NCBI GenBank assembly: GCA_035286325.1
Contig: DATHKH010000046.1
Location: 5,537-69,536 of the forward strand
Direction of reading: 5' to 3'
Length of the DNA: 64,000 nucleotides
DNA from: Flavobacterium sp.
Lineage (GTDB): Bacteria; Bacteroidota; Bacteroidia; Flavobacteriales; Flavobacteriaceae
Part shown: positions 5,741 through 51,912 of the stretch, piece after piece
How positions within the stretch are numbered: the stretch's first letter is position 1
How the letters are laid out: each line of letters opens with the position of its first letter
Made by a program: the position numbers and the translations under genes
Notes under the pieces: generated by a model
Database searches by the model: none
Told to the model about the DNA's origin: nothing
Seen by the model: only the letters and a program-made list of their open reading frames with translations

Positions 5741-5876
5741 GAGCTGTTTGCTGCGCCTGTTCGCTCTTAGGAGCTCGAGTCCTGCTTTCCGTTTCAATCT
5801 TTTTATTAAGGAATTTGCCTTTCGCTATGCTCCAGGCGAATCCTTAAAAAAAGGATTTCCGCTTCAATCAGGGCTA
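5741..5876 (+). repeat. REP-like palindrome family A, copy A1 (interrupted by a micro-element)
   Basis: GAGCTGTTT[insert]CCTGCTTTCCG...ATCTTTTT-stem/loop-AAAAGGATTTCCGCTTCAATCAGGGCTA; aligns with copies at 23892, 30703 and 34630. Confidence 0.85.
5750..5780 (-). mobile_element. Micro-insertion element copy M1 (31 bp) inside REP A1
   Basis: Minus strand ACTCGAGCTCCTAAGAGCGAACAGGCGCAGC; absent from the homologous site of the copy at 30703-30779. Confidence 0.75.
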
Positions 5877-5885
5877 AAGTTACCG

Positions 5886-6662
5886 TTACCCTTTGCTAAT
5901 CCTAATATCTGTTGGCGCCTTAATCGTATCTTTTTCCCTGAAATAATCAATCAGCACATTCCTTAATTTATAATCCAGGTCGTAATTGTGCAGCGATTTC
6001 CTGAAGAAATTCATATTGTCACCGCCATTTACCAAATAATCTGAAGTCACAACCAGATATGTCCTATATGGGTCGAATGCCTGGCCATTAATCCTGATAT
6101 CTTCGGCAATCTTATCTGTACCGATTTTAAAGGCCAACCCCGAAATCGGGTGCGCTTTCTTCTCTGTGATGATATACGAAATCATTTCCAATATTTCTTC
6201 GCCTTTCAATTCCGTCACAATCACGCTGTTCTCAAAAGGCATGATTTCAAAAGCGGTTCTCGTAGTGATATTTCCTTTTGGAATAATAGATCGGATGCCA
6301 CCAAAGTTCAAAAGGCACATGTCAATTTTTTTATTCTCCCTTTTCAGGAACACGCGGTTCGACAGGTCGAGTGTCGCGTCGGCCATGACATTTCCGATTG
6401 CGCATTGCCATTCGCCGGATTTGTCAAGCGTTTCAGGCGCATAGGCAAGCACGACATTCATGTCCTTGTCGATATTGTCGCGATACGGTTTTATAAAAGC
6501 TTCAATCGCAGGAACTTCCGTGTTTTTGTCGGTGACGCCAATTTCCTTGCCTTCAATTTTGGTGACATGGTATTTTGGCGTACCGCAGCCAAAAGCCAGA
6601 AGAAATGTTAAGAATAAAACAAATTGCTTTAAAGCAGCGTGATACTTTTTTAGATTTACCAT
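5886..6662 (-). CDS. 5'-nucleotidase C-terminal domain lipoprotein
   Basis: Lipobox LAFGC; NFGGIR, PFEN, TSDYLVNGGD motifs; start taken at MVNLKK (alternative 6683). Confidence 0.85.
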   Translation of the reverse strand: MVNLKKYHAALKQFVLFLTFLLAFGCGTPKYHVTKIEGKEIGVTDKNTEVPAIEAFIKPYRDNIDKDMNVVLAYAPETLDKSGEWQCAIGNVMADATLDLSNRVFLKRENKKIDMCLLNFGGIRSIIPKGNITTRTAFEIMPFENSVIVTELKGEEILEMISYIITEKKAHPISGLAFKIGTDKIAEDIRINGQAFDPYRTYLVVTSDYLVNGGDNMNFFRKSLHNYDLDYKLRNVLIDYFREKDTIKAPTDIRISKG

Positions 6663-6710
6663 CCGTAATGCGGGGAATTTCATTAATTTTGTTTGCCAAG
6701 TAAAAGTACT

Positions 6711-7229
6711 ATGTTTTTAAATTACCTAAAGGATTTTTCAACAAAAAAAATAGTTAAAAATAGCCTGTCGAATGCCAAACTTCTGCCTTCGGAAAATAAG
6801 ATAAAAACCGTCGGAATCCTATTTGACGAAAGCTACTTTTATGAACGCGAAGCGCTCGTGGCCGAACTGATACAAAACGGAATTGACGAAAATGACATCC
6901 AGGTATTGGTGTTCAAGGACAAGATAAAAAAGAATGAGGTTTTTGATTACCCGGTTTTCAGCAGAAAGGATTTCAGTTGGACGGCAACCATCGACAAGCC
7001 TGAGGTTAAGGATTTTATCGCAAAGGATTTCGACCTGCTGATCAATTATTACGATACCGAAAAGGCGCCATTGCTTTTGGTTTCACACCTGTCAAAAGCG
7101 GGTTTCAAAGTCGGCTTTGCCTCAGTCGACAAAAGGCTCCACCATTTTATGATCAACACCCATGCAGAAAACTACAAGGTTTTTATGGATGAATTGTTCA
7201 AATACCTGAAAATACTAAACAAAATATAA
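6711..7229 (+). CDS. Conserved Bacteroidota protein (DUF6913-like)
   Basis: FDLLINYY...S.AGFKVGF motif; ATG at 6711 follows a TAATTTTG box; directly upstream of dapA. Confidence 0.7.
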
Positions 7230-7230
7230 T

Positions 7231-8112
7231 ATGCAATCATTAATGGGAACCGGTGTGGCGCTTGTCACGCCTTTCAAAAAGGATTTTTCGGTCGATACCG
7301 AAGCCCTGAAAAAAATCGTGAATTACCAGGTTGACGGCGGGATTGAATACCTTGTTGTACTTGGTACGACTGCCGAATCCGCGACATTGACCGAGGCCGA
7401 AAAGGAACTCGTCATCCAGACCATTATTGATGCAAACAACGGAAGATTGCCTTTGGTGCTCGGCGTTGGAGGCAACAATACTGCTGAAGTTGTCAATGAT
7501 TTGAAAACAAAAGACTTATCTGAATTTACTGCCGTACTTTCGGTTTCACCCTATTACAACAAGCCCACTCAAGAAGGCATTTACCAACATTTCAAAGCTG
7601 TCGCCGAGGCATCGCCGATTCCTGTGATTTTATACAATGTTCCGGGAAGAACGGCGAGCAACATGCTGCCATCGACCGTCATTCGTTTGGCAAAAGATTT
7701 CAAGAACATTATCGGGATTAAAGAAGCCGCAGGCGATATTGTCCAGGCGATGAAACTGATCCAGGACAAGCCCGATGGTTTCCTTGTCATTTCAGGCGAC
7801 GACATGATTACGCTTCCGATGGTTTTGGCTGGCGGCGCCGGCGTGATTTCTGTCATTGGCGAAGGATTTCCAAAACAGTTTTCGGAAATGGTGCGCCTTG
7901 GCCTAAGCCGTAAAGTTGACGAAGCCTACAAATTGCATTACCTGCTGGCTGACAGCATCGACATGATTTTTGAGCAGGGAAATCCTGCTGGAATCAAAGA
8001 AGTATTCAAATCGCTCGGTCTTTCTGGAAACACGGTCAGGCTGCCATTGGTTTCGGCGGATGATAACCTCGCACAACGATTGGATAAATTCACGAAATCC
8101 GTTGCGAAATAA
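7231..8112 (+). CDS. dapA: 4-hydroxy-tetrahydrodipicolinate synthase
   Basis: GTTAE, PYYNKP, YNVPGRT, GIKEA, SGDD motifs. Confidence 0.97.
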
Positions 8113-8235
8113 ATAGAGAAAAACGGCGTTTTTTAATAGTAAAAAAATATTTTGCCGTATCCAATTAATAACTAAATTTGCAGTTGGTTTTTGCAGGCCA
8201 TAAATCCTCAAAAACAGCTGAATCCAAAATCTAAA

Positions 8236-9030
8236 ATGAAGAAATTTTTATCGGTATTACTTCTCGCTGTCATCGTTTGTTCATGCAGCCCATATCAGAA
8301 AGCCATCAAATCGGATGATATGGACAAGAAATTTGTCGTTGCCCAGAAAATGTACGACAAAGGAAAATATTCAAAAGCAATCAGGCTTTTTGAACAAATG
8401 GCGGCTTCATACAGAGGCAAGCCACATGCGGAACAGATGTATTATATGTTCGCCCAGTCATACTATAAGACAAAACAGTATTACCTTGCCGGTTACCAGT
8501 TTGAGAGTTTTGCATCGGGTTACCCGAAAAGCTCCCAGGTCGAGGAAGCTTCATTTTTGGGAGCGAAATGTTACTCGAAACTGTCGCCGGTGTATAGCCT
8601 GGACCAAACCGATACCTTCAAGGCCATTGACAAACTCCAGTCGTTCATCGACAATTATCCGGAGTCGCAATATATGGCAGAAGCCAATGTCACTGTGAAG
8701 CTTTTAAGGGAAAAAATAGAGAAAAAGGTTTATGAGAATGCGAAGCAGTACAATTACATTGCAGATTATAAATCGGCTTTGCTCGCATTGGACAATTTCA
8801 TTTCCGATTATCCGGGAACGCCATATAAAGAAGATGCGTTATTTTACAAATTGGATTCGGCTTACAAACTCGCCGTTAATAGTGTGCCTTCAAAAATGGA
8901 AGAGCGCTTGAACAATGCGAAAACAGCGTATGCCAAACTGATACAATTTAAGGCAGATACCAAACATAAATCCGATGCCGACGAAATGATGGCGCGGATT
9001 GAAACAGATTTAAAACAATTTTCTAAATAA
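8236..9030 (+). CDS. bamD: Outer membrane protein assembly factor BamD (lipoprotein)
   Basis: Lipoprotein signal, TPR-like helices, conserved position before rpoZ; ATG at 8236. Confidence 0.9.
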   Translation: MKKFLSVLLLAVIVCSCSPYQKAIKSDDMDKKFVVAQKMYDKGKYSKAIRLFEQMAASYRGKPHAEQMYYMFAQSYYKTKQYYLAGYQFESFASGYPKSSQVEEASFLGAKCYSKLSPVYSLDQTDTFKAIDKLQSFIDNYPESQYMAEANVTVKLLREKIEKKVYENAKQYNYIADYKSALLALDNFISDYPGTPYKEDALFYKLDSAYKLAVNSVPSKMEERLNNAKTAYAKLIQFKADTKHKSDADEMMARIETDLKQFSK

Positions 9031-9036
9031 AAAGTC

Positions 9037-9357
9037 ATGGATTTAAAAAAGACGAATGCTCCGGTAAACACAATCACTTACAACAAAAGTGTCATTGAGG
9101 AACCAACCGGAAATGTGTATGAGGCAATCACGATTATGGCTAAAAGAGCAAACCAGATCAATTCTGAAATCAAAAAAGAACTGACCGAAAAACTCGAAGA
9201 GTTTGCTACTTATAATGACAGTCTTGAGGAAATCTTTGAAAACAAAGAGCAAATTGAGGTTTCTAAATTCTACGAAAAATTGCCTAAGCCGCATGCATTG
9301 GCAGTTCAGGAATGGTTAGACGATAAAATCTACCACAGGGACGCTAACAAACAATAA
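9037..9357 (+). CDS. rpoZ: RNA polymerase omega subunit (Bacteroidota type)
   Basis: TGNVYEAI..MAKRANQI and YEKLPKP motifs; bamD-rpoZ-coaBC order. Confidence 0.9.
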   Translation: MDLKKTNAPVNTITYNKSVIEEPTGNVYEAITIMAKRANQINSEIKKELTEKLEEFATYNDSLEEIFENKEQIEVSKFYEKLPKPHALAVQEWLDDKIYHRDANKQ

Positions 9358-9364
9358 ACCTGCA

Positions 9365-10627
9365 ATGTCAGTTTTAAGCGGTAAAAAAATAGTACTTGGG
9401 GTTTCCGGAGGAATTGCCGCATATAAAACTGCCGCTTTGGTCAGGCTTTTTATAAAATCGGGTGCGCAGGTTAAAGTCGTCATGACGCCTGCCGCCAAAG
9501 ATTTCATTACACCGCTTACATTATCCACACTGTCCAAAAATCCGGTACATTCGACTTTCTTTAATGAGGAAGATGCGGATGCCGGCTTGAGCCAGAATGG
9601 CGAACAGGCGCATCAAAATGCGCAATGGAACAACCATGTCGAATTGGGCCTTTGGGCGGACCTGATGCTCATTGCCCCGGCAACTGCCAATACCTTGTCG
9701 AAAATGGCCAGCGGAAACTGCGACAATCTTCTGGTTGCTGTGTATCTTTCTGCCAAATGCCCGATTTATTTTGCGCCGGCGATGGATTTGGATATGTACA
9801 AGCATCCATCTACAGTTGGAAGTTTTGCGGCGCTGAAAAGTTTTGGCAATATCATGATTCCTGCTGAAAATGGTGAACTCGCGAGCGGACTTTCCGGCGA
9901 AGGCAGAATGGCCGAACCCGAAAATATCATCGCATTTCTCGAAGCCGATTTGAGCAGTAAATTGCCACTCAAAGGAAAAAAAATACTCATTACTGCCGGC
10001 CCGACATACGAAGCCATCGATCCTGTGCGTTTTATTGGAAACCATTCCTCAGGAAAAATGGGTTATGACATTGCACAAAGTGCTGCTGGCCTTGGCGCTT
10101 CGGTGATTTTGGTTTCAGGACCGACGCATTTGAAGATTGAAAATCCACTGGTGAAAGTCATTCCGGTGGTTTCGGCCCAGGAAATGTATGATGCCTGCCA
10201 TGAATATTATGGCAATGTCGATGTCGCGATTGCCGCAGCTGCCGTAGCCGATTACAAGCCGAAATTTCCGGCAGGGCAGAAGATCAAAAAAACGGAAAAG
10301 GATCTCAATATCGAGTTGGAGAACACAAAAGACATTCTGGCTTCATTGGGTGAAAAGAAAAAAAATCAGTTCCTCATTGGCTTTGCCCTTGAAACTGAAA
10401 ATGAAATTGAGAATGCCAAGTTGAAAATCGCCAAAAAAAACCTAGATTTGATTGTGCTGAACTCATTGAATGACGAAGGCGCGGGTTTTGGAAAACCGAC
10501 AAATAAAATTACCTTTATAGACCGTTTTTTAAATATTGAGCCGATGCAGCTGAAATCAAAGGAAGAAGTGGCTGTCGACATATTAAATAAAGTAATAGCG
10601 CATTATTATAAAACCGAAGGTTCATGA
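9365..10627 (+). CDS. coaBC: Phosphopantothenoylcysteine decarboxylase/ligase, carrying an 11-aa in-frame insertion
   Basis: GGIAAYK, APATAN, PAMD..M, TAGPTYEAIDPVRFIGNHSSGKMG, GFALET motifs. Confidence 0.97.
   Translation: MSVLSGKKIVLGVSGGIAAYKTAALVRLFIKSGAQVKVVMTPAAKDFITPLTLSTLSKNPVHSTFFNEEDADAGLSQNGEQAHQNAQWNNHVELGLWADLMLIAPATANTLSKMASGNCDNLLVAVYLSAKCPIYFAPAMDLDMYKHPSTVGSFAALKSFGNIMIPAENGELASGLSGEGRMAEPENIIAFLEADLSSKLPLKGKKILITAGPTYEAIDPVRFIGNHSSGKMGYDIAQSAAGLGASVILVSGPTHLKIENPLVKVIPVVSAQEMYDACHEYYGNVDVAIAAAAVADYKPKFPAGQKIKKTEKDLNIELENTKDILASLGEKKKNQFLIGFALETENEIENAKLKIAKKNLDLIVLNSLNDEGAGFGKPTNKITFIDRFLNIEPMQLKSKEEVAVDILNKVIAHYYKTEGS
9584..9616 (+). mobile_element. Micro-insertion element copy M2 (33 bp, degenerate), in-frame in coaBC
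   Basis: GGCTTGAGCCAGAATGGCGAACAGGCGCATCAA encoding GLSQNGEQAHQ; shares GAGC...GCGAACAGGCG with copies at 5750 and 29605. Confidence 0.65.
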
Positions 10628-10651
10628 ATTCGTTAAAAAAAATACAAACGC

Positions 10652-11542
10652 ATGAGTAATAAAATCATTGCTTTTTTCTTTTTGCTGGTGTCCGGAACTG
10701 CGGGCGCGCAACAGCTTAATTGTACGGTTACGGTCAATTCTGACAAGATAAACAATGCCAATCCCAATACCTTTAAAACACTACAGACATCCATTAGCGA
10801 GTTTGTCAACAAAACCGATTGGACCGGCGAAGAGTACAAACAAGGCGAAAGAATCAATTGCTCGATGTATATTACGCTAAGTTCCTATGATTCAAGCCAA
10901 TATATAGCAACAATACAAGTGCAATCGTCGCGCCCGGTATTCAATTCGACTTATTCGTCACCGGTTTTGAATTATAATGATAAAGACTTGAGTTTCAAAT
11001 ACGTAGAATTTGAAGCACTAAACTTTAACCCAGGAACTTTCGACTCCAACCTCGTATCGATACTCGCTTTCTACAGTTATATGATTATCGGCATGGATGG
11101 CGATACTTTTGATCTGCAGGGCGGAAGCAAAGCACTGGAAACCGCACAGGATATCGTAAATGTCGCGCAGCAAGGCGGCTACAAAGGCTGGAGCCAGGCA
11201 GATGGCAACCAGAGCCGTTATTTCTTAATCAACGATATGCTTTCAAATACGTATAGCCCATTCCGCGAGGCGATGTACCAATACCATGCTGAAGGTTTGG
11301 ATACGATGGCAAAAGATTTGAAAAGCGCCAAGCAGAAAATTGCAGAATCATTGCAGACACTAGGGAAATTATATCAGGTAAGGCCAAATGCATACCTGAC
11401 GCGTGTGTTTTTTGATGCCAAATCGGATGAGATTGTTTCTATTTTTTCTGGTGGGCCAAGCGTCTCCATTACGGAGTTGGTCGACAACCTCAATAAGATT
11501 TCGCCTTTGAACACGAATAAATGGACTGGAATTAAATTTTAA
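10652..11542 (+). CDS. porD: DUF4835 family protein (T9SS-associated PorD)
   Basis: Signal peptide, QQLNCTVTVN, QVQSSRPVFNSTY, FFDAKSDEI; lies between coaBC and recN. Confidence 0.75.
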   Translation: MSNKIIAFFFLLVSGTAGAQQLNCTVTVNSDKINNANPNTFKTLQTSISEFVNKTDWTGEEYKQGERINCSMYITLSSYDSSQYIATIQVQSSRPVFNSTYSSPVLNYNDKDLSFKYVEFEALNFNPGTFDSNLVSILAFYSYMIIGMDGDTFDLQGGSKALETAQDIVNVAQQGGYKGWSQADGNQSRYFLINDMLSNTYSPFREAMYQYHAEGLDTMAKDLKSAKQKIAESLQTLGKLYQVRPNAYLTRVFFDAKSDEIVSIFSGGPSVSITELVDNLNKISPLNTNKWTGIKF

Positions 11543-11602
11543 TTCCGCAGCATTTGCACCTGCAAATTCCATAAATTTGGTTTTTCAACCAATCCAACTT
11601 AA

Positions 11603-23891: not shown

Positions 23892-23968
23892 GGGAGCTTT
23901 TTCCTGCTGTCCGCTATATCTTTCGCTCCGCTGCGCTTTGCAAAAGGATGCCGCTTCCATCAGGGCTA
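23892..23968 (+). repeat. REP-like palindrome family A, copy A2
   Basis: GGGAGCTTTTTCCTGCTGTCCGCTATATCTTT...AAAAGGATGCCGCTTCCATCAGGGCTA; overlaps the miaA stop codon. Confidence 0.85.
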
Positions 23969-24889
23969 GGGCTTTTCGTTCACAATCGAACTGATATATG
24001 CAATGATGTTTTTGTCATCATCAGCAAAATCAAACCATTCCACATTTTCATTTTTCTTAAACCACGTCAATTGCCTTTTTGCAAAACGCCGCGTATTTTT
24101 CTTGATTTCCGAAACCGCAAAATCCAAAGTGAATTCCCCGTCAAAATAACTGAACAACTCGCGATAACCTACAGTCTGCAGCGCATTCAGGTTTTTATTT
24201 GGATATAATTTTTCCGCTTCAGCGAGCAAGCCTTCAGTCATCATGATATCAACACGCAAATTAATACGGTCGTAAATGCTTTCCCTGTCGGTTTCCAATC
24301 CCATCAGAATAGGAGTAAAGCCGCGGGGATTTTGCTTGTTGTTCAAAAAAGAAGAATACGGTTTTCCAGAACCAATCGACACTTCCAAAGCGCGCATCAG
24401 CCGCTGCGGGTTTTCTTTGTCGACAATTCCAAAATATTTAGGATCGGCTTTCTGCAATTCGGTTTGCAGGTATTCGATTCCTGATTTCTCGTAGTTTTCA
24501 ATCAGCGTGGCACGGATTTCAGCATTTACTTCAGGAAATTCGTCAAAGCCTTTTAAAACGGCATCGACATACAACCCCGAACCGCCAACCATAACCGCAT
24601 AATCATTGGTTTCAAAAAGATGCTCGAGTTTTGCTATCGCTTCTTTTTCAAAATCGCCCACGGTATAAGAATCGAAAATCGATTTGTTGTGGATAAAATA
24701 GTGTTGTACAAATGCGAGTTCTTCTGCAGTCGGAACCGCAGTGCCAATAGTCATTTCCTTAAAAAACTGTCGTGAATCGCAGGAAATGACCTCACAATTG
24801 TAATGCTGCGCCATCCGGATTGCCAAAGCCGTTTTTCCGATGGCTGTCGGGCCAACAATAGTGATGAGGTATTTTTTTTTGGTAGCCAA
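23966..24889 (-). CDS. miaA: tRNA dimethylallyltransferase
   Basis: GPTAIGKT, DSRQ, VGGSGLY, TVGYRE, TRRFAKRQLTWF. Confidence 0.97.
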   Translation of the reverse strand: MATKKKYLITIVGPTAIGKTALAIRMAQHYNCEVISCDSRQFFKEMTIGTAVPTAEELAFVQHYFIHNKSIFDSYTVGDFEKEAIAKLEHLFETNDYAVMVGGSGLYVDAVLKGFDEFPEVNAEIRATLIENYEKSGIEYLQTELQKADPKYFGIVDKENPQRLMRALEVSIGSGKPYSSFLNNKQNPRGFTPILMGLETDRESIYDRINLRVDIMMTEGLLAEAEKLYPNKNLNALQTVGYRELFSYFDGEFTLDFAVSEIKKNTRRFAKRQLTWFKKNENVEWFDFADDDKNIIAYISSIVNEKP

Positions 24890-29585: not shown

Positions 29586-29644
29586 AACTTCGTTCAGTTC
29601 GGCTTTGCTTCGCCTGTTCGCTATTGCTCGGGTTAGCCTCGGGT
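29586..29644 (-). mobile_element. Nested micro-insertion elements M3 (outer, 30 bp) and M4 (inner, 29605-29633)
   Basis: Minus strand ACCCGAGGCTA[ACCCGAGCAATAGCGAACAGGCGAAGCAA]AGCCGAACTGAACGAAGTT. Confidence 0.75.
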
Positions 29645-30604
29645 TTTAAAGCAGTCAATAATCCTGTAGGCAACGCGAAGTGCTTCTGTTCCTTGTTCCA
29701 ATGTTACGATTGGTTTGGTGTTGTTGGCAATGGCATCGGCGAAAGTCTCGAGTTCGTCCAGAATCGCATTGTTTTGTTCGACGTCGGGATTGGCGAAATA
29801 GATTTGCTTTTTCACGCCTTCGGCATTTTGCAGGATCATGTCGAAATCGCCCGGATTTTCAGGCGCGTCTTTCATTTTGACGACTTCACATTTCTTTTCC
29901 AGGAAGTCGACCGAAATGTAAGCGTCTTTTTGGAAGAAACGCGATTTACGCATATTTTTCAGGGAAATGCGGCTCGCAGTCAAGTTGGCGACACAGCCAT
30001 TTTCAAACTCAATCCTCGCATTCGCAATATCCGGCGTGTCAGAAATCACGGAAACGCCACTGGCATTAATGTTTTTCACCGGTGAATGCACAACGCTTAA
30101 AATCGCATCGATATCATGGATCATCAAATCCAAAACTACAGGAACATCGGTGCCGCGCGGGTTGAACTCGGCCAAACGGTGCGTTTCGATGAACATCGGA
30201 TTTTCAATCATGTCTTTGGTCGCGATGAAAGCGGGATTGAAACGCTCGACATGGCCGACTTGTCCTTTGACATTGTATTCGTTTGCGAGCGCGATGATTT
30301 CTTCGGCTTCTTCGACTGTATTTGAAATCGGTTTTTCGATAAAAACGTGCTTACCGGATTTGATGGCGACTTTCGCGCATTTGTAATGGGAAAGCGTTGG
30401 CGTGACGATATCAATGACGTCAACGGCATGGATTAAAGTCGCAATGGTATGGAAATTCTTATAACCGAACTCTTTGGAAATTTTTTCGGCATTTTCCTGA
30501 TTTTCATCATAGAAGCCAACGAGTTCATATTTTTCGGATTGCTGTAATAAACGGAGATGAATTTTTCCCAGATGGCCGGCACCTAAAACCCCAACTTTTA
30601 GCAT
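29633..30604 (-). CDS. Gfo/Idh/MocA family oxidoreductase
   Basis: GAGHLG, EKP, GHVERFNP, DLMIHDID; last codons (TRG*) lie inside the micro-element. Confidence 0.93.
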   Translation of the reverse strand: MLKVGVLGAGHLGKIHLRLLQQSEKYELVGFYDENQENAEKISKEFGYKNFHTIATLIHAVDVIDIVTPTLSHYKCAKVAIKSGKHVFIEKPISNTVEEAEEIIALANEYNVKGQVGHVERFNPAFIATKDMIENPMFIETHRLAEFNPRGTDVPVVLDLMIHDIDAILSVVHSPVKNINASGVSVISDTPDIANARIEFENGCVANLTASRISLKNMRKSRFFQKDAYISVDFLEKKCEVVKMKDAPENPGDFDMILQNAEGVKKQIYFANPDVEQNNAILDELETFADAIANNTKPIVTLEQGTEALRVAYRIIDCFKTRG

Positions 30605-30669: not shown

Positions 30670-30702
30670 TGGGCTTTGAAATAGGATTTTATACGATTGC
30701 CA

Positions 30703-30779
30703 TAGCCCTGATTGAAGTGGAAATCCTTTTGAGGCTTTTCGCCGAAAAAGATTGTAGCGGAAAGCAGGAAACAGCTCCC
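30703..30779 (-). repeat. REP-like palindrome family A, copy A3 (uninterrupted)
   Basis: Minus strand GGGAGCTGTTTCCTGCTTTCCGCTACAATCTTTTT...AAAAGGATTTCCACTTCAATCAGGGCTA. Confidence 0.85.
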
Positions 30780-34629: not shown

Positions 34630-34728
34630 GGGAGCCATTTCCTGCTTTCGCCTTTATCTTTTCAGGATTGATATTCCTTCGCTGCGCTTCAGGCAATCCT
34701 AAAAAGGATGCCGGCTCTATCAGGGCTG
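34630..34728 (+). repeat. REP-like palindrome family A, copy A4
   Basis: GGGAGCCATTTCCTGCTTTCGCC...ATCTTTT...AAAAGGATGCCGGCTCTATCAGGGCTG; contains the GNAT stop codon. Confidence 0.85.
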
Positions 34729-35223
34729 GGGCAACCGTTTTTCCATGATAAAATCTTCCATCAAATAACCATGGTCTAATTCGATGTCTTCCTCGCCGAC
34801 AATCTCAAATCCGAGTTTCTCGTAAAATCCCAAAGCTTTATTCGAACGATTGACATTTAGTGTCAATACATCTGAATCGTTTATTTTGGCGATCGCTGAA
34901 ATCCCATCAATTAAAATCTTGCCGATTCCTTTTCCCTGCGCTTCCGGAAGCATATAGATTTTTGGGATTTTAGTCATGTGAATTTTAGGGTAATCATGTA
35001 CGTAACTCGCGAAACCCAACGCGATTCCGTCTTCTTTTGCAATTAAAAAATGATGGCCGCTTCTAAGGTTTTTATTTAAACCATCGACTGAGTAGAATAA
35101 ATCCAACATGTAGTTTAACTGAACTTTAGATAAAATATTTCCGTAAGTTGACGGCCATGTTTTATAAGCGATTTCACTTATGATGCCAAAATCATCCGCT
35201 GTGGCTTCACTAATCGTTATCAT
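34720..35223 (-). CDS. GNAT family N-acetyltransferase
   Basis: QGKGIG acetyl-CoA motif, LNVNRSNKALGFYEKLGF. Confidence 0.92.
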   Translation of the reverse strand: MITISEATADDFGIISEIAYKTWPSTYGNILSKVQLNYMLDLFYSVDGLNKNLRSGHHFLIAKEDGIALGFASYVHDYPKIHMTKIPKIYMLPEAQGKGIGKILIDGISAIAKINDSDVLTLNVNRSNKALGFYEKLGFEIVGEEDIELDHGYLMEDFIMEKRLPQP

Positions 35224-43051: not shown

Positions 43052-43079
43052 GAAAGGCCCAGGTTGGTCCCTTTTTTTT

Positions 43080-43241
43080 GGGCGTTGCCTGCGGCCGGGC
43101 TTTCCGCAGTGCGCGGCACTTTGCTGCAATCCCTAACGCGCACCCGATCATCTTCAAGTCTGCGTTAGGGATTGAAGCGGAAAGCCCGCAGAGAGGCACG
43201 AGTGAGGACTTGAAGCGGAAAGCCCGGCCGCAGGCAACGCC
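43080..43241. repeat. REP-like family B inverted doublet (B1 on +, B2 on -)
   Basis: Perfect 27-bp terminal inverted repeat GGCGTTGCCTGCGGCCGGGCTTTCCGC (43081-43107 / 43215-43241); inner CAATCCCTAACGC / GCGTTAGGGATTG. Confidence 0.9.
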
Positions 43242-43366
43242 AAAATCCAACAACCTGGCAATCTTACTCTTAACATCAAATTACCACAATTTTAATAATC
43301 ATTTAATAGCCATTTCGCATGTTGTTGGGTAACTTAGGGGAACTAATAACCACTAAACCAATTATT

Positions 43367-44451: not shown

Positions 44452-44498
44452 CTGAAGCGCAACATTTGCCGGAAAGATAAATCCTTTGATTTTAGCGA

Positions 44499-44780: not shown

Positions 44781-44936
44781 AGTCCTAAGTTTATAAGTTA
44801 ATAGATTTGTTGGCAGAATAAAATTAATAAAATATATTTACCAGACAAGAGAAATGGCGAAAATGTTAAAAACAGCAAAGCCTTGGTTTCAAGGAAATTT
44901 GCCGGTTTCTCAGTCCATAAACAGCCATTATACCAT

Positions 44937-45491: not shown

Positions 45492-45524
45492 AAAAGGTTT
45501 GAAAATCTCTTTTCCAAACCTTTT
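45492..45524. terminator. Bidirectional terminator
   Basis: AAAAGGTTTGAAAA/TTTCCAAACCTTTT between convergent genes. Confidence 0.7.
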
Positions 45525-45566
45525 CACCAAAACAAAATAAAATTATATTGTTTTTGCTGTTTGCCG

Positions 45567-45926
45567 CTAATTTTTCGGCTTGGCAGGTTCGCCTACATTT
45601 CCGCTTGTCGCTGAACCGCTTCCGCTTCCGGGCATGGCTGTACCACTAGTTCCGTCTGTTGTAGTTCCCGATGGTTCTGTTGGACTGTCAGGGGTCGTTT
45701 GGGCCGGGTCTTTGGTATCGCTTCCTTTTGTTTTGCTTTTCCGGGTTGTGGCCGTAGTGGTAGTTTTGCCATCACTTTTCGTAGTTTTCATATCCTTATC
45801 CTTGCCGTTGTGAACTTTTGTAGTGGATTTGGTATGTGTTTTTGATTTTGTAGACGTACTGTCTGTCTGCGCTGAAGCAACGGCAAAAGCCATAAAAGCA
45901 CACAGCATAAAGATGATTTTTTTCAT
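45567..45926 (-). CDS. Secreted low-complexity (T/K/S/G-rich) protein
   Basis: Signal peptide ending AVASA; probably disordered mature region. Confidence 0.75.
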   Translation of the reverse strand: MKKIIFMLCAFMAFAVASAQTDSTSTKSKTHTKSTTKVHNGKDKDMKTTKSDGKTTTTATTRKSKTKGSDTKDPAQTTPDSPTEPSGTTTDGTSGTAMPGSGSGSATSGNVGEPAKPKN

Positions 45927-46285
45927 GTCATTGCATTTTAATTATTATTAGTTACTTAAAGTTAGCGTAGTTTTTCACTAGCCATTTTAAAATTGGGTTT
46001 TCATTTAGAGTTATTTAACGTGGGTTTTAGAAGTCTTATTAAATTGTGGTTAAAGTTGAGGAAGAAGTGTTAAATAAAGCACTGTATTTCAATAGGGTAG
46101 CTGGATTATCCGGCCAAAAAACGGTGGATATATATATTTCAGTTGAAGTTTTTGATTGAAAAATTGGAGGATCGTTAATAGATTGAACCGCTTTGAAAAT
46201 ACTTAAAAGAAGAAAATACTAAAAGTGTACTATTGGTGATATTAGACCGGATTGCATATCCAGAATAAACTCCGCAGTGGAAATG

Positions 46286-46331
46286 AAACCAATCAATCAA
46301 TCAAAGATTGATTGATTGGTTTTTTATTTTT
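46286..46331 (+). terminator. Orphan terminator-like hairpin built from (AATC)n/(GATT)n
   Basis: Perfect 17-bp stem 46286-46302 / 46306-46322, AAA loop, then T-rich tail. Confidence 0.75.
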
Positions 46332-46374
46332 AAATGAATTTTATGAGCGAGGTCAACATTTATTTTTAAAAATA

Positions 46375-46401
46375 AAAAACCCACACAAAAGTGTGGGTTT
46401 T
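46375..46401 (-). terminator. Terminator downstream of the tRNA
   Basis: AAAACCCACAC-AAAA-GTGTGGGTTTT. Confidence 0.8.
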
Positions 46402-46411
46402 CATTCTTAAG

Positions 46412-46485
46412 TGACCTCGACTGGATTCAAACCAGTAACCTCTTGAGCCGTAATCAAGTGCGCTATTCAGTTGCGCCACGAGGCC
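46412..46485 (-). tRNA. tRNA-Arg (anticodon ACG)
   Basis: GGCCTCG/CGAGGTC acceptor stem; CTTGA-TTACGGC-TCAAG anticodon arm; GGTTTGAATCC T arm; CCA not encoded; TATATTTG box upstream. Confidence 0.96.
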
Positions 46486-46625
46486 TTTATACCTCACTTT
46501 ACTCTATTTTTAATCGGAGTTCGGTGAACGCTGTTTGAGGGTGCAAATATATTCATTTTTGGATAGTTTCCAAAGCAAACTTTTAATTACTTTAAAATTT
46601 TTTCAAAGCAGGAAAGCTTGCGGAA

Positions 46626-46772
46626 TCATTTCTTTTCCAAAGCCCTGATCGTCACATAATACCGCCAGGCAATCAATGCAAGTTCCCATTTCTTGGCTTT
46701 GGCCATATCCAATTGCCGCCTCGTAAATGAGGGCAGCAGCAGCTTATTGATTTTAGCAAGGAATTGAAACAT
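46626..46772 (-). CDS. Small basic conserved protein (48 aa)
   Basis: MFQFLAKINKLLLPSFTRRQLDMAKAKKWELALIAWRYYVTIRALEKK; TATATTTG box just upstream. Confidence 0.7.
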   Translation of the reverse strand: MFQFLAKINKLLLPSFTRRQLDMAKAKKWELALIAWRYYVTIRALEKK

Positions 46773-46834
46773 TGGAATAAATTGGCAAACAAATATATAA
46801 AAAAGGCTGCCCAACCAGGCAGCCTTCAAAGGTG

Positions 46835-48718
46835 TTATTTTTTCTTCTGTTCCGCTTTCTCTTTTTCAAGTTCGGCTTTTTCTTTTTCAAGCTCGAGTTT
46901 CGCCTGCTTGATTTCTTCACGGGCTTGTTCCATTTCTTTCCGGGCTTGTTCCATTTCCCTTTTCGCATCTTCCATTTGCGGCCTGGCTTTCCTCATTTCG
47001 ATTCTTGCCCTTTCCATCTCAGGACGCGCTCTTCTCATGCCTTCACGGGCTTTTTCCATCGCTTCTGCGGTGATTTTTTTTGTATCGATTACAATGACGC
47101 CATCTTTGCCGTTTTTGCCATAAGCATAGGCATAACCTTTGGCCTGGTCGCCTTTCAATACATTCATTTGTGCAATGGTTTCAGGGTCCAGTTTATCCAT
47201 ATCTTCGCTGGAAATAATTTTCCCGTCAACGATGACCATCGGTTTCCCGTCGCCTTTTTTGATGATAATTGTTTTTCCATTGTGATTGCCACCTGGCATT
47301 TCAGGAAGTTCAGGCAATTCTGCCAGTTCCGGTAACTCAGGCAATTCAGGTAATTCAGGTAATTCCGGCATTTCAAATGCCAATCCATCGGTATTGAATG
47401 TGAAGTCAAAATCCTCGTCATCGTTTTCGCCCGAAGCATTGTCATCATGGTTAGACGACTTGTTCCTTAGACCGTATCCTTTTACATAAACCTCTTTTGG
47501 ATCCTCAAAAAAGCCAATCTTACCTTTGCCATACATATCGATATCCCTGATGAAATGAATGGGCCTGATTGGCGTGTCTCCCGAAATATTCTTGGTTTGC
47601 TGGTTTCCGAGTTTGTCCTTGTATGATATCCTTATTGCTGTGATTTCGCCGTTTGCATTTCTTTTTATTTTTGAAAATTTAAAAGTAATTCCGGATTTCT
47701 TCATTGCCGCGGCATTGTCCTTAAATTCTTTGTCGGAAGTATTTTTGTCCCAAGTCATATCGGTAACTTCCCTTGAAGACATAGAAACCGTAGAGCCATC
47801 TTCCAGCAGGATTTGTTTTTCCTGGGCTACGACATTCACCTGGAAATAAAACATAAACGCTGCCAACGCCGGAATGATTAATAAGTACTTCCAGGAATTC
47901 CATTTTTTCGACTGATTTTTGTTTAACATAACGATTCGCTTTTTGATTAATGATTGATAAAAATGATTGGTAATATCAACACAATTTTCATGTGCCGTAA
48001 CTTTCAGTAAGGTGATTTGGTATGATTTTTTAGCTACGCTCTGTTCGGCTTCGCCTCGAGTGTCGGATATTTTTTTGAGTGCCTCGCTGTCAGCTATGAA
48101 TTCCAGGTTCTGCAATATGGATTTTTTATACATCCATACAAATGGATTGAACCAAAACACAATGCAATACAACCTCGCAAACAACACATCCAAAGTATGG
48201 TTCTGGTTGCTGTGCACTTTTTCGTGCTCCAAAATATTGTCGAGTTCCGAACTGCTGTACAACGACGAGTTGAAAACAATATAATTGAAATAGGAGAAAG
48301 GCGAAATGTTCTCATTCGTATCCACAAACCTGAAATCTGCCTGTTGGTAAACCTTTTTGCCCTTCAGTACTTTTTTCAGGGAATAGAAATCAGTAAAGAA
48401 GCGGATTAAAAATGCCGTAATTCCAATCCCGTAAACAATTCCCAAAACCAAAAGCCAATTGATTTCCACGCCTTGCTGGGCTTGCGGCGCATATATTTCA
48501 ACAGGGACATTATTCCAGTCGACCTGTGGCCGTGCATCGACCAAAATCACTTTTTTAAAAGTAACTAATGGCAAAATAACCGCTGTAACTAACCCGAATA
48601 ACAAATACCACCGGTTACTTTTAAAAAAGGTCTCTTTGCGCAGCAAAAAATAGTAGCCAAGCCAGAACACGGCAATCAGCGCGCCCGATTTGATGAGGTA
48701 AACAAACAGCATTTCCAT
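46835..48718 (-). CDS. M56 (BlaR1/MecR1-type) metallopeptidase signal transducer, carrying a 10-aa in-frame insertion
   Basis: N-terminal TM segments, PFSYFNYI, HEKVH zinc motif, WFNP, EFIAD, KKRIVML; follows a BlaI-type gene. Confidence 0.92.
   Translation of the reverse strand: MEMLFVYLIKSGALIAVFWLGYYFLLRKETFFKSNRWYLLFGLVTAVILPLVTFKKVILVDARPQVDWNNVPVEIYAPQAQQGVEINWLLVLGIVYGIGITAFLIRFFTDFYSLKKVLKGKKVYQQADFRFVDTNENISPFSYFNYIVFNSSLYSSSELDNILEHEKVHSNQNHTLDVLFARLYCIVFWFNPFVWMYKKSILQNLEFIADSEALKKISDTRGEAEQSVAKKSYQITLLKVTAHENCVDITNHFYQSLIKKRIVMLNKNQSKKWNSWKYLLIIPALAAFMFYFQVNVVAQEKQILLEDGSTVSMSSREVTDMTWDKNTSDKEFKDNAAAMKKSGITFKFSKIKRNANGEITAIRISYKDKLGNQQTKNISGDTPIRPIHFIRDIDMYGKGKIGFFEDPKEVYVKGYGLRNKSSNHDDNASGENDDEDFDFTFNTDGLAFEMPELPELPELPELPELAELPELPEMPGGNHNGKTIIIKKGDGKPMVIVDGKIISSEDMDKLDPETIAQMNVLKGDQAKGYAYAYGKNGKDGVIVIDTKKITAEAMEKAREGMRRARPEMERARIEMRKARPQMEDAKREMEQARKEMEQAREEIKQAKLELEKEKAELEKEKAEQKKK
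47294..47374 (-). repeat. Coding 9-bp tandem repeat (ELP)x9
   Basis: EMP ELP ELP ELP ELP ELA ELP ELP EMP. Confidence 0.85.
48032..48061 (-). mobile_element. Micro-insertion element copy M5 (30 bp), in-frame in the M56 gene
   Basis: ACTCGAGGCGAAGCCGAACAGAGCGTAGCT encoding TRGEAEQSVA within KKISD^KKSYQ. Confidence 0.8.
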
Positions 48719-48722
48719 ATGC

Positions 48723-49079
48723 TTATTTTTTTTCGATTAATGCCAATATCTCACGCAGCTCTTCAGCCGAAATTTTCTCTTCCTTCGCAAAAAAGGATAC
48801 CATATTCTTATACGAGCTGCCAAAATAATTGTCAATCGCCGTACTCATAAACGCCTTTCTGTAATCCTCGATTTTCACGGCCGGAAAATACTGGTGCGTA
48901 TTCCCATAAGCCGTATGCGACACATAACCTTTTTCTTCAAGGTTGCGCACAATCGTCGACAATGTATTGTAATGTGGTTGGTCTTCAGTGATTTCTGCGA
49001 GGATGTCTTTCACAAAAGCCTTTTTCAGCTTCCATAAAATGTGCATGATTTCTTCTTCTTTGTTCGTGAGCTTTTGCAT
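48723..49079 (-). CDS. BlaI/MecI/CopY family transcriptional repressor
   Basis: LTNKEEEIM.ILW, YNTLSTIVRNLEEKGYV, YFGSSYKNMVSFF. Confidence 0.95.
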   Translation of the reverse strand: MQKLTNKEEEIMHILWKLKKAFVKDILAEITEDQPHYNTLSTIVRNLEEKGYVSHTAYGNTHQYFPAVKIEDYRKAFMSTAIDNYFGSSYKNMVSFFAKEEKISAEELREILALIEKK

Positions 49080-49092
49080 AGTTTTATTATTT

Positions 49093-49174
49093 GGGCGTTT
49101 CCCTGCGGGTCAGGCTTTCGGCTCCATCTTTTTTTCATTCTTCAAAAAAAGATGCCGCCTCAATCCTTAACGCA
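49093..49174 (+). repeat. REP-like family B copy B3 (B-type ends, A-type core) in the blaI leader
   Basis: GGGCGTTTCCCTGCGGGTCAGGCTTTCGGCTCCATCTTTTTTT...AAAAAAAGATGCCGCCTCAATCCTTAACGCA. Confidence 0.8.
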
Positions 49175-49189
49175 GTCTGTAACACAATC

Positions 49190-49254
49190 CAAACGTACAA
49201 CTATATTTTTAGTTACACAACTATAAAATTAGTTATTTAACTAAATTTTAAGTT
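49190..49254 (-). promoter_or_regulatory. blaI promoter (-7 box TACGTTTG) with three AACTA-N6-TAGTT palindromes
   Basis: -7 box at 49190-49197; palindromes at 49199-49214, 49219-49234 and 49239-49254 (the last has one mismatch). Confidence 0.7.
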
Positions 49255-50470
49255 TTTTAACTTCCTTGCCGTGAAGGACTTTCTGCAGATAAACGGCCGC
49301 AAGTGCAGCCACAATGCCCATACTTCCCATAAAAAACCAGTTGGCCTGGAAGCCGTAATTTCCGATAATCGTCAAACCAACTTTAGAACTCATGATCTGA
49401 GCCAGGCTAAAACTCATCGTATACAATGCCATATATCTGCCTTCGTGGCCTTTTGGCGCACGGCTCATCGCAAACGAATTTGAAAACGGGAACGCAAACA
49501 TTTCCCCAAACGTGATAAATAAAATACTGACGACCAAAACGCCAATCCAACCCGCCAGCAAAACAAAGAAACTCGCAGCCATCAGCAATGAACCCCAAAA
49601 AATAATTTTGACTTTCTGTATTTTCTTCCGTTCAAAATAACTGACAATCGGCATTTCCAAGAAACCAATCATAACGCCGTTCAAAGTCATAAATAATCCT
49701 GTCTGAAATGGCGTAAGCGCATACCTATTGTGATGATATAATGGCAGCGTATAAAATATCTGGAAGAAAATCATCGCGGTCACGAAACTCGTAAACAGGA
49801 AAATCCAGAACGGCTTGTCCTTAAAAACCGATTCTGTCAGGATTTCGCCAGGATGTTCTTTATCTGTATAAGGCGATTTCTTTTTCTCCTTGACCAGGAT
49901 CCAGAAAATCAAAATTGCAAGGATGCAGGTCGAACCGTCAGCCCAAAACAGGCCTTTATAACCAATGCCCATAATAATCAATCCGCCCAATGCCGGTCCG
50001 GCAGCAAATCCCAAATTCACGGCCAATCGCACCAATGTCAGTGCACGCGTCCGGTATTCTGGTTTCGCATACGCGCCAAGCGATACGAACATCGCCGGGC
50101 GGAACATATCGGCAATGATCATAATGCCAAACATCGAAAAGCACAATCCCCAAAAGGTTGTTACAAACTGAATGACAAAAAACAACAATCCGCTCGTAAA
50201 CAAACTGAAAATCATGACTTTGTAAAACCCGATTTTGTCTGCAAGTTTTCCGCCAAGCCATGAGCCAATCATTGATCCGAATCCAAAACAGACCATAATC
50301 CAGCCGACTTCGCCGTAACTGAAATGCAAATCTTCCTTGAGATATTTGGACAGAAATGGGAGCACCATTGTTCCGGCGCGGTTGATGAAAGTGATGATCG
50401 CCAGTATCCAGATTTCCCTTGAAAACCCTTTAAAGTTGTCTACATAACGTTTCGAGGCCGTTTTAAGCAT
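49241..50470 (-). CDS. MFS transporter
   Basis: INRAGTMVLPFL, GGKLADKIG motif A, NLGFAAGPALGG; about 12 TM segments. Confidence 0.93.
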   Translation of the reverse strand: MLKTASKRYVDNFKGFSREIWILAIITFINRAGTMVLPFLSKYLKEDLHFSYGEVGWIMVCFGFGSMIGSWLGGKLADKIGFYKVMIFSLFTSGLLFFVIQFVTTFWGLCFSMFGIMIIADMFRPAMFVSLGAYAKPEYRTRALTLVRLAVNLGFAAGPALGGLIIMGIGYKGLFWADGSTCILAILIFWILVKEKKKSPYTDKEHPGEILTESVFKDKPFWIFLFTSFVTAMIFFQIFYTLPLYHHNRYALTPFQTGLFMTLNGVMIGFLEMPIVSYFERKKIQKVKIIFWGSLLMAASFFVLLAGWIGVLVVSILFITFGEMFAFPFSNSFAMSRAPKGHEGRYMALYTMSFSLAQIMSSKVGLTIIGNYGFQANWFFMGSMGIVAALAAVYLQKVLHGKEVKKLKI

Positions 50471-50562
50471 GTCGTTTGGTTGTCTTGCAAAGTTAAGAAT
50501 CCTGCAAAGATTAATCGGTCCGAACGACGGATTTTATCTGCAGATTTCTTTATTTTTGCTTA

Positions 50563-50606
50563 ACCCGAGGCCGATGCGACAAGCTAAGGCCGAACTGGAC
50601 GAAGTT
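50563..50606 (+). mobile_element. Micro-insertion element copy M6 (44 bp) in the leader of the DUF1684 gene
   Basis: ACCCGAGGCC-GATGCGACAAGCTAA-GGCCGAACTGGACGAAGTT between a TATTTTTG box (50551-50558) and the ATG at 50618. Confidence 0.75.
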
Positions 50607-50617
50607 AAATAATTGCA

Positions 50618-51220
50618 ATGAAAAATTTCCTTATTATTGTATGCTGCCTCGGCTCGCTGGCCGCTTTATCCCAACAGCAATTTGATCGCGAGGCGGCAAA
50701 AAAGGCGCAAAAAGAACTCAATATCGAATACGAGGACAAAGACAAAAGTCCGCTGACACCGGAAGACCGCGAAAATTTCAAAGGACTGGATTTCTTCCCG
50801 GTATCGGAAAAATATTTCGTGGTTGCCCATTTCACCAGAACCGAAACCGAAAAGCCTTTTGAAATGAAAACCACCGGCGCCAGAAGGCCTTTGTACCAGA
50901 AATATGGCGAACTGGCTTTTGCATTGGAAGGCAAAAACTTCAAACTGAACCTTTACCAGAATATCGAACTCAGCAAAAAAGACGGTTACCATGATTATCT
51001 GTTTCTGCCGTTTTCCGACCTTACTTCTGGGAAGGAAAGCTACATTGGCGGCCGTTACATCGATGTCAGAATTCCGAAAGGCGATACGATGGCAATCGAT
51101 TTCAACCAGGCTTACAATCCGTATTGCGCCTACAACCACAAATATTCCTGCCCGATCGTGCCGCAGGACAACGACCTCGATATTGAAATCCGCGCCGGCG
51201 TTAAAAAATTTCTCGACTGA
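50618..51220 (+). CDS. DUF1684 domain protein
   Basis: Signal peptide; LFLPF.D.TSG.ESY.GGRY, DFNQAYNPYCAY...CP. Confidence 0.92.
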   Translation: MKNFLIIVCCLGSLAALSQQQFDREAAKKAQKELNIEYEDKDKSPLTPEDRENFKGLDFFPVSEKYFVVAHFTRTETEKPFEMKTTGARRPLYQKYGELAFALEGKNFKLNLYQNIELSKKDGYHDYLFLPFSDLTSGKESYIGGRYIDVRIPKGDTMAIDFNQAYNPYCAYNHKYSCPIVPQDNDLDIEIRAGVKKFLD

Positions 51221-51912
51221 TGTTTTTCAATTTGCATACACACAAATCCGGAAGCGATCCGGAAGTTGTGGAATTGGTCAATCAATATCCGCAGGAATTG
51301 GCTTCGCCCAGTTCGGGCAAAGATCCTCGGGTTGATGCGACAATCCCGTTTTATTCCATTGGAATCCATCCGTGGCATATTGTAGAAAACAGGGTTTCTG
51401 AAGACTTGGGAATCATTAAAAGTAAATTGGGCGAGCAAAACTGCCTGGCCATCGGAGAATGCGGATTGGACAAAAGAATAGAAATTCCATTTGATTTGCA
51501 GGTTGGCGTTTTTGAAAAACAATTGGCTTTGGCCGAAAGATATCAGAAACCGGTAGTCATCCATTGTGTCGCGGCATTTTCAGAAGTCATGGAAATCAAA
51601 AAGCGCCTCAAAATTTCAGTGCCGATGATCATTCATGGGTTTTCAAAAAATGAACAAACGGCAAAACAGCTTTTGGACCATGGTTTTTATCTTTCTTTTG
51701 GCAAATATTTGCTGCGGAATCCCGAACTTGAATCGGTTTTCAAAAGCGTGCCCGACGATCGGTTTTTTCTGGAAACTGATACGATTGAAGAAAGTATCCG
51801 CGACGTTTACAATTTGGCTGCAAAATATAGAAGCACCGACTTACAAACATTACAAAACACAATCAAACAAAATTTCAGTTCCGTTTTTAACCGAACGAAT
51901 CTAATAATCTAA
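51220..51912 (+). CDS. tatD: TatD family hydrolase, carrying an in-frame insertion
   Basis: HTH, GIHPW, IGECGLD, IHCV, HGF, ETD motifs. Confidence 0.9.
   Translation: MFFNLHTHKSGSDPEVVELVNQYPQELASPSSGKDPRVDATIPFYSIGIHPWHIVENRVSEDLGIIKSKLGEQNCLAIGECGLDKRIEIPFDLQVGVFEKQLALAERYQKPVVIHCVAAFSEVMEIKKRLKISVPMIIHGFSKNEQTAKQLLDHGFYLSFGKYLLRNPELESVFKSVPDDRFFLETDTIEESIRDVYNLAAKYRSTDLQTLQNTIKQNFSSVFNRTNLII
51300..51332 (-). mobile_element. Micro-insertion element copy M7 (33 bp), antisense and in-frame in tatD
   Basis: Minus strand ACCCGAGGATCTTTGCCCGAACTGGGCGAAGCC; removal restores GAA TTT GAT (QYPQEFDATIPF). Confidence 0.8.

Follow-up and report, generated by a model that had tools for sequence, protein, structure and literature searches.

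Very small, probably non-autonomous insertion elements with paired hairpins in genomes of the genus Flavobacterium

The stretch of Flavobacterium sp. DNA analysed here (64,000 nucleotides (nt); GenBank assembly GCA_035286325.1, contig DATHKH010000046.1, positions 5,537 to 69,536, forward strand; hereafter the window) carries seven copies, M1 to M7, of a short element with two hairpins. An earlier note had described them from the letters alone, and a re-reading of the sequence returned all seven with the same sequences, coordinates and strands. Our analysis confirmed that the element family is genuine. As far as searched, it is a real and apparently undescribed very small mobile element, whose nearest kin in kind are the small dispersed repeats (SDRs) of cyanobacteria, the repetitive extragenic palindromic (REP) sequences and the Rickettsia palindromic elements (RPEs); the literature search found no description of it. 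The most probable explanation is a family of very small non-autonomous insertion elements that would fold as single-stranded DNA (ssDNA), would be moved in trans (an enzyme of the HUH/Y1 type being the leading candidate, though at less than even odds), and are filtered by reading frame when they stand in genes. That the element is inserted, very small and non-autonomous, as the earlier note had proposed, is borne out by empty sites in orthologues and in sister copies of the repeats that host it.

The genome to which the window belongs (G000) is a draft of 2.83 Mb in 207 contigs, with 42.8% G+C and 89% completeness. The strict pattern of the earlier note matched it 18 times, versus about 0.002 matches expected by a hand estimate from base composition. 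A curated scan, in which a copy was accepted when both fixed words were exact or when there was one mismatch and both hairpins were present, gave about 57 copies (32 with both fixed words exact, 25 with a fixed-word mismatch) versus 2 in the same genome reversed but not complemented. At seven copies, the window exceeds the genome-wide density, which averages about 1.3 copies per 64 kb. The layout of ACYCGA, a variable central hairpin, GAACWG and a terminal hairpin with a GNA triloop stood as first described, except that the A run which had been counted as its last part belongs to the target and lies outside the element, because the empty sites set the boundary at the terminal hairpin. Hairpin statistics were taken on 29 copies selected by the fixed words alone. 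Among these, 24 had a central stem of at least 2 bp (shuffle mean 7.8, maximum 17 in 1000), with 24 different central sequences in the set, and 23 had the terminal triloop hairpin versus 16% at all GAACWG sites, the loop being G-N-A in 20 of the 23. The stems vary across genomes while the fixed words stay conserved across species. Unit size is mostly 26-33 nt and rarely about 44 nt. Its two ends, ACYCGA.. and ..GNAGY, do not form an inverted repeat, and neither the terminal inverted repeats nor the target-site duplication typical of the miniature inverted-repeat transposable elements of DDE transposons were found. The Rfam covariance-model search left the element unmatched, its matches being only the Flavo-1 host repeat and one tRNA.

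In every testable case the copies are insertions. Orthologues of coaBC, tatD and the M56 peptidase gene, which had been put forward as a means of defining empty sites, did define them, and the insertions are seen against these sites. Junctions were compared with empty sites for M1, M3, M4, M5, M7 and one coaBC orthologue (L135). The inserted piece begins with ACYCGA and ends where the terminal hairpin ends, and the absence of a target-site duplication held up: no flanking bases are duplicated or lost, with at most one A ambiguous at the junctions. About 45 of 55 copies have AA directly 3' of them and then A or T; at -1, 29 of the 55 have G and only 2 have T. The target is thus roughly [not T]|AA[A/T], often G|AA, and insertion is oriented and seamless, just 5' of AA. 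Copies stand within genes and spacers, in 5' leaders, and inside other repeats or one another. Host hairpin loops were not enriched as targets (5/55 copies versus 6% expected).

The nesting of copies within other repeats and within one another, another claim of the earlier note, was upheld by M1 and by M3 with M4. M1 (5750..5780, minus strand, 31 nt, ACTCGA-GCTCCTAAGAGC-GAACAG-GCGCAGC) occupies a G|AAA site near the 3' end of a copy of the Flavo-1 repeat (Rfam RF01705; 5774..5879, minus strand, 63.7 bits, E 1.4e-11), which is 106 nt long versus 76 nt for the Rfam model. Another Flavo-1 copy (30700..30775, plus strand, 75.4 bits) has the site empty and reads ..agcagg|aaacagctc without interruption; genome-wide, about seven Flavo-1 3' ends are clearly filled by the element and many are empty. 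M3 (29586..29644, minus strand) is an outer element, ACCCGA-GGC.TA[M4]AA.GCC-GAACTG-AACGAAGTT, and M4 (29605..29633, minus strand, 27 nt plus AA) interrupts the loop of M3's central hairpin at TA|AA. Further filled and empty pairs were found in the REP hairpins flanking genes of REP-associated tyrosine transposases (RAYTs) in two genomes (G009, G019) and in a gtcattccgcaggaat array in a third (G023). A second nested composite resembling M3 plus M4 (..ACCCGAACGAAAGCGAATTGGCGAAGCAAAGCCGAACTGACGAAGT..) was read on the minus strand of contig C181 of G000 at about 4170-4230, and nested composites may be copied as single units. The G023 array (G023:C4; L230 1480-1900) is made of units of about 100 nt built on gtcattccgcaggaatc hairpins beside a small GIY-YIG gene, and three of its units carry the micro-element at tt|cc.

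The remaining window copies show how the element alters genes. M3 provides the new stop codon of the gene upstream of it, an oxidoreductase-type gene (29633..30604, minus strand) which ends here in ..IIDCFKTRG* versus ..IIDCFKK* in many of 29 orthologues, the element being present in 0/29. In the spacer downstream of this gene, two other species have independent element copies at other positions. The same downstream spacers (L102-L129) also hold species-specific hairpin repeats (GCCACGAATTCACGAA.., AGTTTAAGGTTTAAAG.., GTTTCAGGTTTCAAG..), whose variety indicates that REP-like families turn over rapidly in the genus. M5 (48032..48061, minus strand, 30 nt) adds TRGEAEQSVA in frame to an M56 (BlaR-type) peptidase gene (46835..48718, minus strand): ..KKISD-TRGEAEQSVA-KKSYQ.. 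here is opposed to ..KKISD-KKAYQ.., a clean 10-aa gap in 29/29 homologues of the genus. M7 (51300..51332, minus strand, 33 nt) stands antisense in a tatD-family gene (51220..51912, plus strand), where it splits a Phe codon and gives ..QYPQE-LASPSSGKDPRV-DATIP.. versus ..QYPQEF-DATIP.., a clean 11-aa gap in 29/29 orthologues. One TatD orthologue (L088, from G023) has a different in-frame insertion of 21 nt with an ATTGC...GCAAT hairpin (HPWYI-ERLPREL-AMTRL), which suggests further micro-insertion families in the genus. M6 (50563..50606, plus strand, 44 nt) has an expanded centre and lies 11 nt upstream of the start codon of a co-oriented gene. M2 (9584..9616, plus strand) is an old, decayed copy in coaBC (9365..10627, plus strand), where its peptide GLSQNGEQAHQ falls within a variable acidic loop. 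The earlier note had read M2 as an in-frame unit of 33 bp; it is indeed an insertion, but its length was misjudged, the orthologues without it pointing to an insertion of 30 nt, now decayed, to which 9 further bases have been added in this genome, 13 aa in all.

The earlier note had also held that the copies add peptides to proteins and are filtered for frame, and both statements were supported genome-wide. About 22 of the 57 copies (about 40%) lie within long open reading frames (ORFs) that have coding-like codon usage on either side. Length was a multiple of three (3n) in 20 of 21 coding copies versus 4 of 25 intergenic ones (Fisher p = 3.5e-8). Coding copies measured 27 nt (eleven copies), 30 nt (eight) or 33 nt, plus one doubtful copy of 29 nt; intergenic copies measured 25, 26, 28, 29, 31, 32, 35, 40, 43 or 44 nt, with four or five copies of 3n length. 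Each in-frame copy adds 9-11 residues, mostly in one hydrophilic frame per subtype. The 27-nt type, with a GC-N4-GC centre, is always read xAC CCG AGC GAT AGC GAA CAG GCG AAG CAA, giving D-P-S-D-S-E-Q-A-K-Q in eleven or more copies, and its second open frame, which would give the basic peptide TRAIANRRS, is never used; the D at its start and the Q at its end agree with entry of the element into a GAA codon at G|AA. The 30-nt type, with a GGC-GNA-GCC centre, is read T-R-G-E-A-E-Q-S-x-A in 4 of 5 copies, and its next frame would end in TAA. One protein of G017 (L234, G017:C271:5000-6400, minus strand, 351-aa ORF) contains four in-frame copies of the 27-nt type, DSSDSEQAKQ-like, in one acidic low-complexity stretch. 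One canonical in-frame copy (DPSDSEQAKQ) was found near an ORF start on a viral or proviral contig (IMGVR_UViG_3300020045_020013; L237 281-305, minus strand).

Orientation within genes was uneven, with the ACYCGA strand being the sense strand in 18 of 23 copies; most intergenic copies were co-oriented with a neighbouring gene, and seven copies (M6 and six others) lay 2-70 nt upstream of start codons, also co-oriented. On sense strands AAA exceeds TTT by 1.5:1 and AAAA exceeds TTTT by 1.8:1, so that oriented insertion at A runs predicts about 60-65% sense copies, and the 78% observed does not clearly exceed this (p = 0.054). The sense-strand excess is therefore largely explained by A runs being commoner on sense strands, and no RNA function is needed to account for it.

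Among the genomes searched, the element is found almost only in the genus Flavobacterium. The motif was present in 20 of 24 Flavobacterium genomes (1-32 copies each) and in 0 of 16 genomes from other families of the order, and the reversed-pattern control gave 0 in all 41 genomes (G000, the 24 of the genus and the 16 of other families). Across 150 other genera of the family, single matches occurred in 4, three of them seemingly genuine, while the control gave seven there. Sublineages could be recognised by the central hairpin: GC-GATA-GC is dominant in several large genomes, and GAGC-TTT-GCTC is so in G018, G009 and G023. The largest and most varied copy sets are those of G000 and G017. The coaBC site was followed through 102 orthologues. 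Five have a recognisable element at G|AA of GAT GAA AAT, three more have a 10-residue segment that is possibly a decayed copy, and the rest are empty; the site of M2 is occupied in G021 by the intact form ACCCGAGCCATAAAGGCGAACAGGCGAAGC. A coaBC tree, built without the insertion loop from this single gene and with many weak forks, shows the carriers scattered, with eight changes needed and at least three forced by well-supported branches. The site is filled in L135 and empty in three relatives at about 93-95% DNA identity; the L135 centre, GCCATAAAGGC, is identical to that of the distant L048, and in the L135 flanks divergence is at most slightly raised locally, with no clear imported patch. 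This pattern could reflect repeated precise loss, repeated hot-spot insertion of one sublineage or short-patch recombination. The patchy distribution fits precise loss or re-insertion.

The hairpins of the element correspond to a known physical motif. DNA mini-hairpins of the form GCGNAGC consist of two G-C pairs plus a sheared G-A pair (Kimoto and Hirao 2026, PMC13037366). Their melting temperature is 70-76 C, with GCGNNAGC about equal and GCGATAGC at 71.0 C, a stability which, according to the authors, conventional thermodynamics fails to explain (PMC13037366). The origins of phages and plasmids have such words at the sites recognised by primase (PMC13037366). The canonical hairpins of the element are exactly these words, GCGATAGC in the centre and GCGAAGC at the end. 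Of 55 copies in G000, 29 have an exact mini-hairpin word as their terminal hairpin and 19 as their central one, and the C-GNA-G core is kept in a further 10 terminal and 3 central hairpins. Folding as ssDNA is favoured by these exact words, and the special stability of the hairpins would rest on the published mini-hairpin data. Mini-hairpin DNA has the same words as the central and terminal hairpins of the canonical element; it is familiar from the origins of phages and plasmids and from the engineering of aptamers, with no known role in a mobile element.

Under the preferred explanation, the element would fold as ssDNA, and an enzyme supplied in trans would recognise the two fixed single-stranded words beside the hairpins and would cut and paste the element. 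For this enzyme, which G000 may lack, the likeliest kind would be the HUH/Y1 one that serves IS200/IS605 and REP/RAYT systems. In genes, selection would keep the 3n copies, mostly in one hydrophilic frame per subtype. Single-strand 'peel and paste' transposition by HUH/Y1 enzymes is established for IS608 and ISDra2. The HUH/Y1 kind is favoured here because hairpins stand beside fixed words, there are no terminal inverted repeats (TIRs) and no duplication, and insertion is oriented at a short target; it is the likeliest single kind, at a probability clearly below even.

No transposase is encoded near the copies, as had been stated for the window. The further idea that Y1 or RAYT enzymes of the HUH class mobilise the element did not find support, as no Y1 gene was found in G000 and the presence of RAYT or IS200-type genes does not track copy number in 24 relatives. 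PF01797 and NF047646 were scanned against 31 genomes, and G000 was also searched at the protein level and by tblastn with seven Y1 proteins; two marginal tblastn matches in G000 were located in unrelated genes. Flavobacterium does carry RAYT (NF047646, 98 bits) and IS200-like genes, and element copies lie about 100-250 nt from RAYT genes in G009 (two loci) and G019. A RAYT gene flanked by the motif, for which the earlier note had proposed to look, was not what these loci revealed: the adjacency arises because the element nests in the RAYT's own, different REP hairpins, which read gggcacggaatgc|aattccgcgctatc when empty and are filled by the element in other copies. The RAYT genes of the genus (L221 1100-2100; L222; L223 3380-5000) make up REPtrons together with hairpin REPs of their own, such as gggcacggaatgcaattccgcgctatc; the IS200-type genes (L212-L217) have GTCCCGTAGGGAC-type hairpins and GGTAGAA words (GTAG-type REPs) on their flanks.

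Several other candidates were rejected. An IS200-type TnpA as the source of the ends was dismissed, the motif being absent from the ends of ten TnpA loci. The single match in G000 to a DUF559/Vsr nuclease was an ordinary gene of the Vsr-like type, and the copy nearest to it is 2.2 kb away. A small GIY-YIG nuclease gene in G023 stands between copies, but these are nested in its gtcattccgcaggaat repeats, and the GIY-YIG gene of G000 stands in a tRNA cluster without copies. The latter gene (C170:10600-11120, 95 aa) is inserted in the tRNA gene cluster with the tRNA 3' end duplicated, and resembles a tiny tRNA-targeting nuclease element. Elsewhere in G000 (C163), two inverted copies stand on either side of a gene, which encodes cobalamin adenosyltransferase and is not a mobility gene. 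As for strand along the replicon, ten matches in the closed genome G008 gave no two-block pattern, the origin being unmapped.

Several results weigh against the proposed mechanism. By standard nearest-neighbour DNA folding energies, six of the seven folded stretches had z near 0, and M7, at z -2.6, adopted a different fold; the stems are just 2-4 bp and are no better than shuffles in this energy model. A Y1 or RAYT gene was not found in the 89% complete G000 assembly, and no RAYT above the family score cut-off was found in G012 (13 copies, 100% complete), G018 (13 copies, 99%) or G017 (32 copies, 74%). In a tally of the 24 related and hence non-independent genomes, RAYT-positive genomes averaged 4.9 copies and RAYT-negative ones 7.4. 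RAYT and IS200-type genes at at least nine loci are flanked by other hairpins and not by the motif. In some genomes the element travels chiefly as a passenger of a larger repeat, so that not all copies are independent insertions. Neither gain nor excision was directly observed in the runs examined, which were all of the same strain: three sequencing runs covering the stretch, all contigs of one strain, contained no skipped form, run X3 leaving M5 and M7 uncovered, and none of the runs listed for the stretch was of RNA.

An ordinary REP/REPIN family, serving as substrate of a Flavobacterium RAYT, would account for the hairpin architecture, the lack of duplication and the vertical persistence within one genus, and RAYT genes do occur in the genus with copies near them in G009 and G019. 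We consider this unlikely, since those adjacent copies sit inside the RAYT's own REP, the GTAG/CTAC word is absent while ACYCGA and GAACWG are fixed, about 40% of copies are intragenic, and no RAYT was found in four genomes with 13-32 copies, nor any correlation with copy number. A somewhat stronger challenge, which is possible but doubtful, is that the copies in G000 are fossils of a family that was mobile formerly, or is mobile only in enzyme-bearing strains or phages, and is now decaying here. This would agree with the failure to find a candidate enzyme in G000, with the fixed-word mismatches in 25 of 57 copies, with the visible decay of M2 and with the diversity of the G000 copies, among which there is no burst of identical ones. 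On the other side, the fixed words of M5 and M7 are intact (both hairpins of M5 are perfect besides) and neither copy is present in the 29/29 sampled orthologues, 32 copies retain both fixed words exactly, and the enzyme gene may be unassembled in a genome that is 89% complete.

There is a small chance that the sequence has a host function, either as an ssDNA signal, such as a primase site or a landmark free of ssDNA-binding protein (SSB), or as an RNA leader element of 5' untranslated regions. The mini-hairpin words at phage and plasmid primase sites (PMC13037366), the seven co-oriented copies upstream of start codons and the general co-orientation with transcription speak for such a function. 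The copies, however, are at non-orthologous, lineage-specific places, in unrelated proteins and in other repeats; there was no Rfam match, the 18/23 bias is near that predicted from the 1.5:1 excess of AAA over TTT, and the upstream positions fit an A-rich target. Hardly probable at all is a spread without any transposition, by short-patch homologous recombination or local templated repair. The presence of the GCCATAAAGGC variant at one coaBC site in non-sister species is what import would give, but recombination cannot put one 27-33 nt unit into dozens of unrelated sites sharing only AA, the flanks of L135 lack a clear imported patch, and from species to species the fixed words are retained and the stems differ. 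Small insertion elements moved in trans thus remain our preferred explanation. We also entertain, tentatively and at a probability well under even, that this is among the smallest mobile DNAs: a mini-hairpin pair that would insert and excise seamlessly at G|AA via ssDNA, with no dedicated transposase in the same genome, a driver that may be a housekeeping, phage-borne or new enzyme, and the effect of a genus-wide mutagen adding ten-residue loops, the coaBC allele recording repeated precise excision or homing.

Should the explanation be true, mobile DNA in a genus that is well studied and of ecological importance would extend down to about 27 bases, far below the range of repeat finders and annotation. 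Such elements would lengthen proteins unnoticed, rewrite C-termini and fill 5' leaders; they would also interrupt Rfam 'RNA' motifs such as Flavo-1 and could mislead alignments. The element would tie the physics of GCGNAGC mini-hairpins to a biological process, a single oligonucleotide would be a compact substrate for an enzyme search, and the many filled and empty site pairs would offer a clean system for the study of protein insertion tolerance. Rfam places Flavo-1 RNA (RF01705) at five positions in the window: 5774-5879 (minus), 23896-23971 (minus), 30700-30775 (plus), 34634-34731 (minus) and 49104-49182 (minus). Across the genome, Flavo-1 copies behave as REP-like DNA repeats, being dispersed and modular; they contain GTAGCGGAAAGC-type words, some variants include the micro-element and others lack it, and the status of Flavo-1 as a small RNA gene is questioned. 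Another abundant repeat family (..GCGGAAAGCCCGGCCGMAGGCAACGCCCAAAA..) lies at 43072-43246 and 52675-52714 of the window, with 16-35 related pieces in the genome by blastn.

Among known systems, the RPEs are selfish repeats of about 100-150 bp that are found in frame in protein genes of Rickettsia. The Flavobacterium element resembles them in its in-frame survival in protein genes and in the peptide segments it adds, and differs in host, in structure and in its shorter length, adding only 9-11 residues. SDR1-8, small dispersed repeats of 21-27 nt, were reportedly described from Nostoc and other heterocystous cyanobacteria by Elhai et al. 2008 (Genome Res 18:1484; cited in PMC3116915, PMC4390886 and PMC2884548). 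SDR5 is presented as precisely nested inside HIP1 (PMC4390886). SDRs are alike in being very small (21-27 nt versus 26-33 nt), dispersed, nested in repeats, furnished with hairpins, limited to one lineage and lacking an identified enzyme; they are unlike in host phylum and probably in sequence, and the present element has two hairpins, two fixed words, an AA target and many in-frame copies. REP and REPIN sequences with their RAYTs (Bertels and Rainey 2011, PMC3116915; NF047646) share short hairpin repeats, the lack of duplication, vertical persistence and a presumed ssDNA mechanism with the element, which in contrast lacks the GTAG word, flanking of RAYT genes, mainly extragenic placing, regular inverted doublets and co-occurrence with RAYT. 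With the palindrome-associated transposable elements (PATEs) of IS200/IS605, and with IS608 and ISDra2, it has in common a hairpin near each end, no TIRs and no duplication, perhaps also precise excision and an orientation of insertion set by a short target (TT when read on the opposite strand), whereas it is several-fold smaller, no autonomous insertion sequence with the same ends was found among the genomes searched, and its target is 2-3 nt (AA[A/T] in about 45/55) versus 4-5 nt in that family. The element largely has the structural features of IS200/IS605 derivatives without the genetic ones, and departs from REP/RAYT systems in the features tested.

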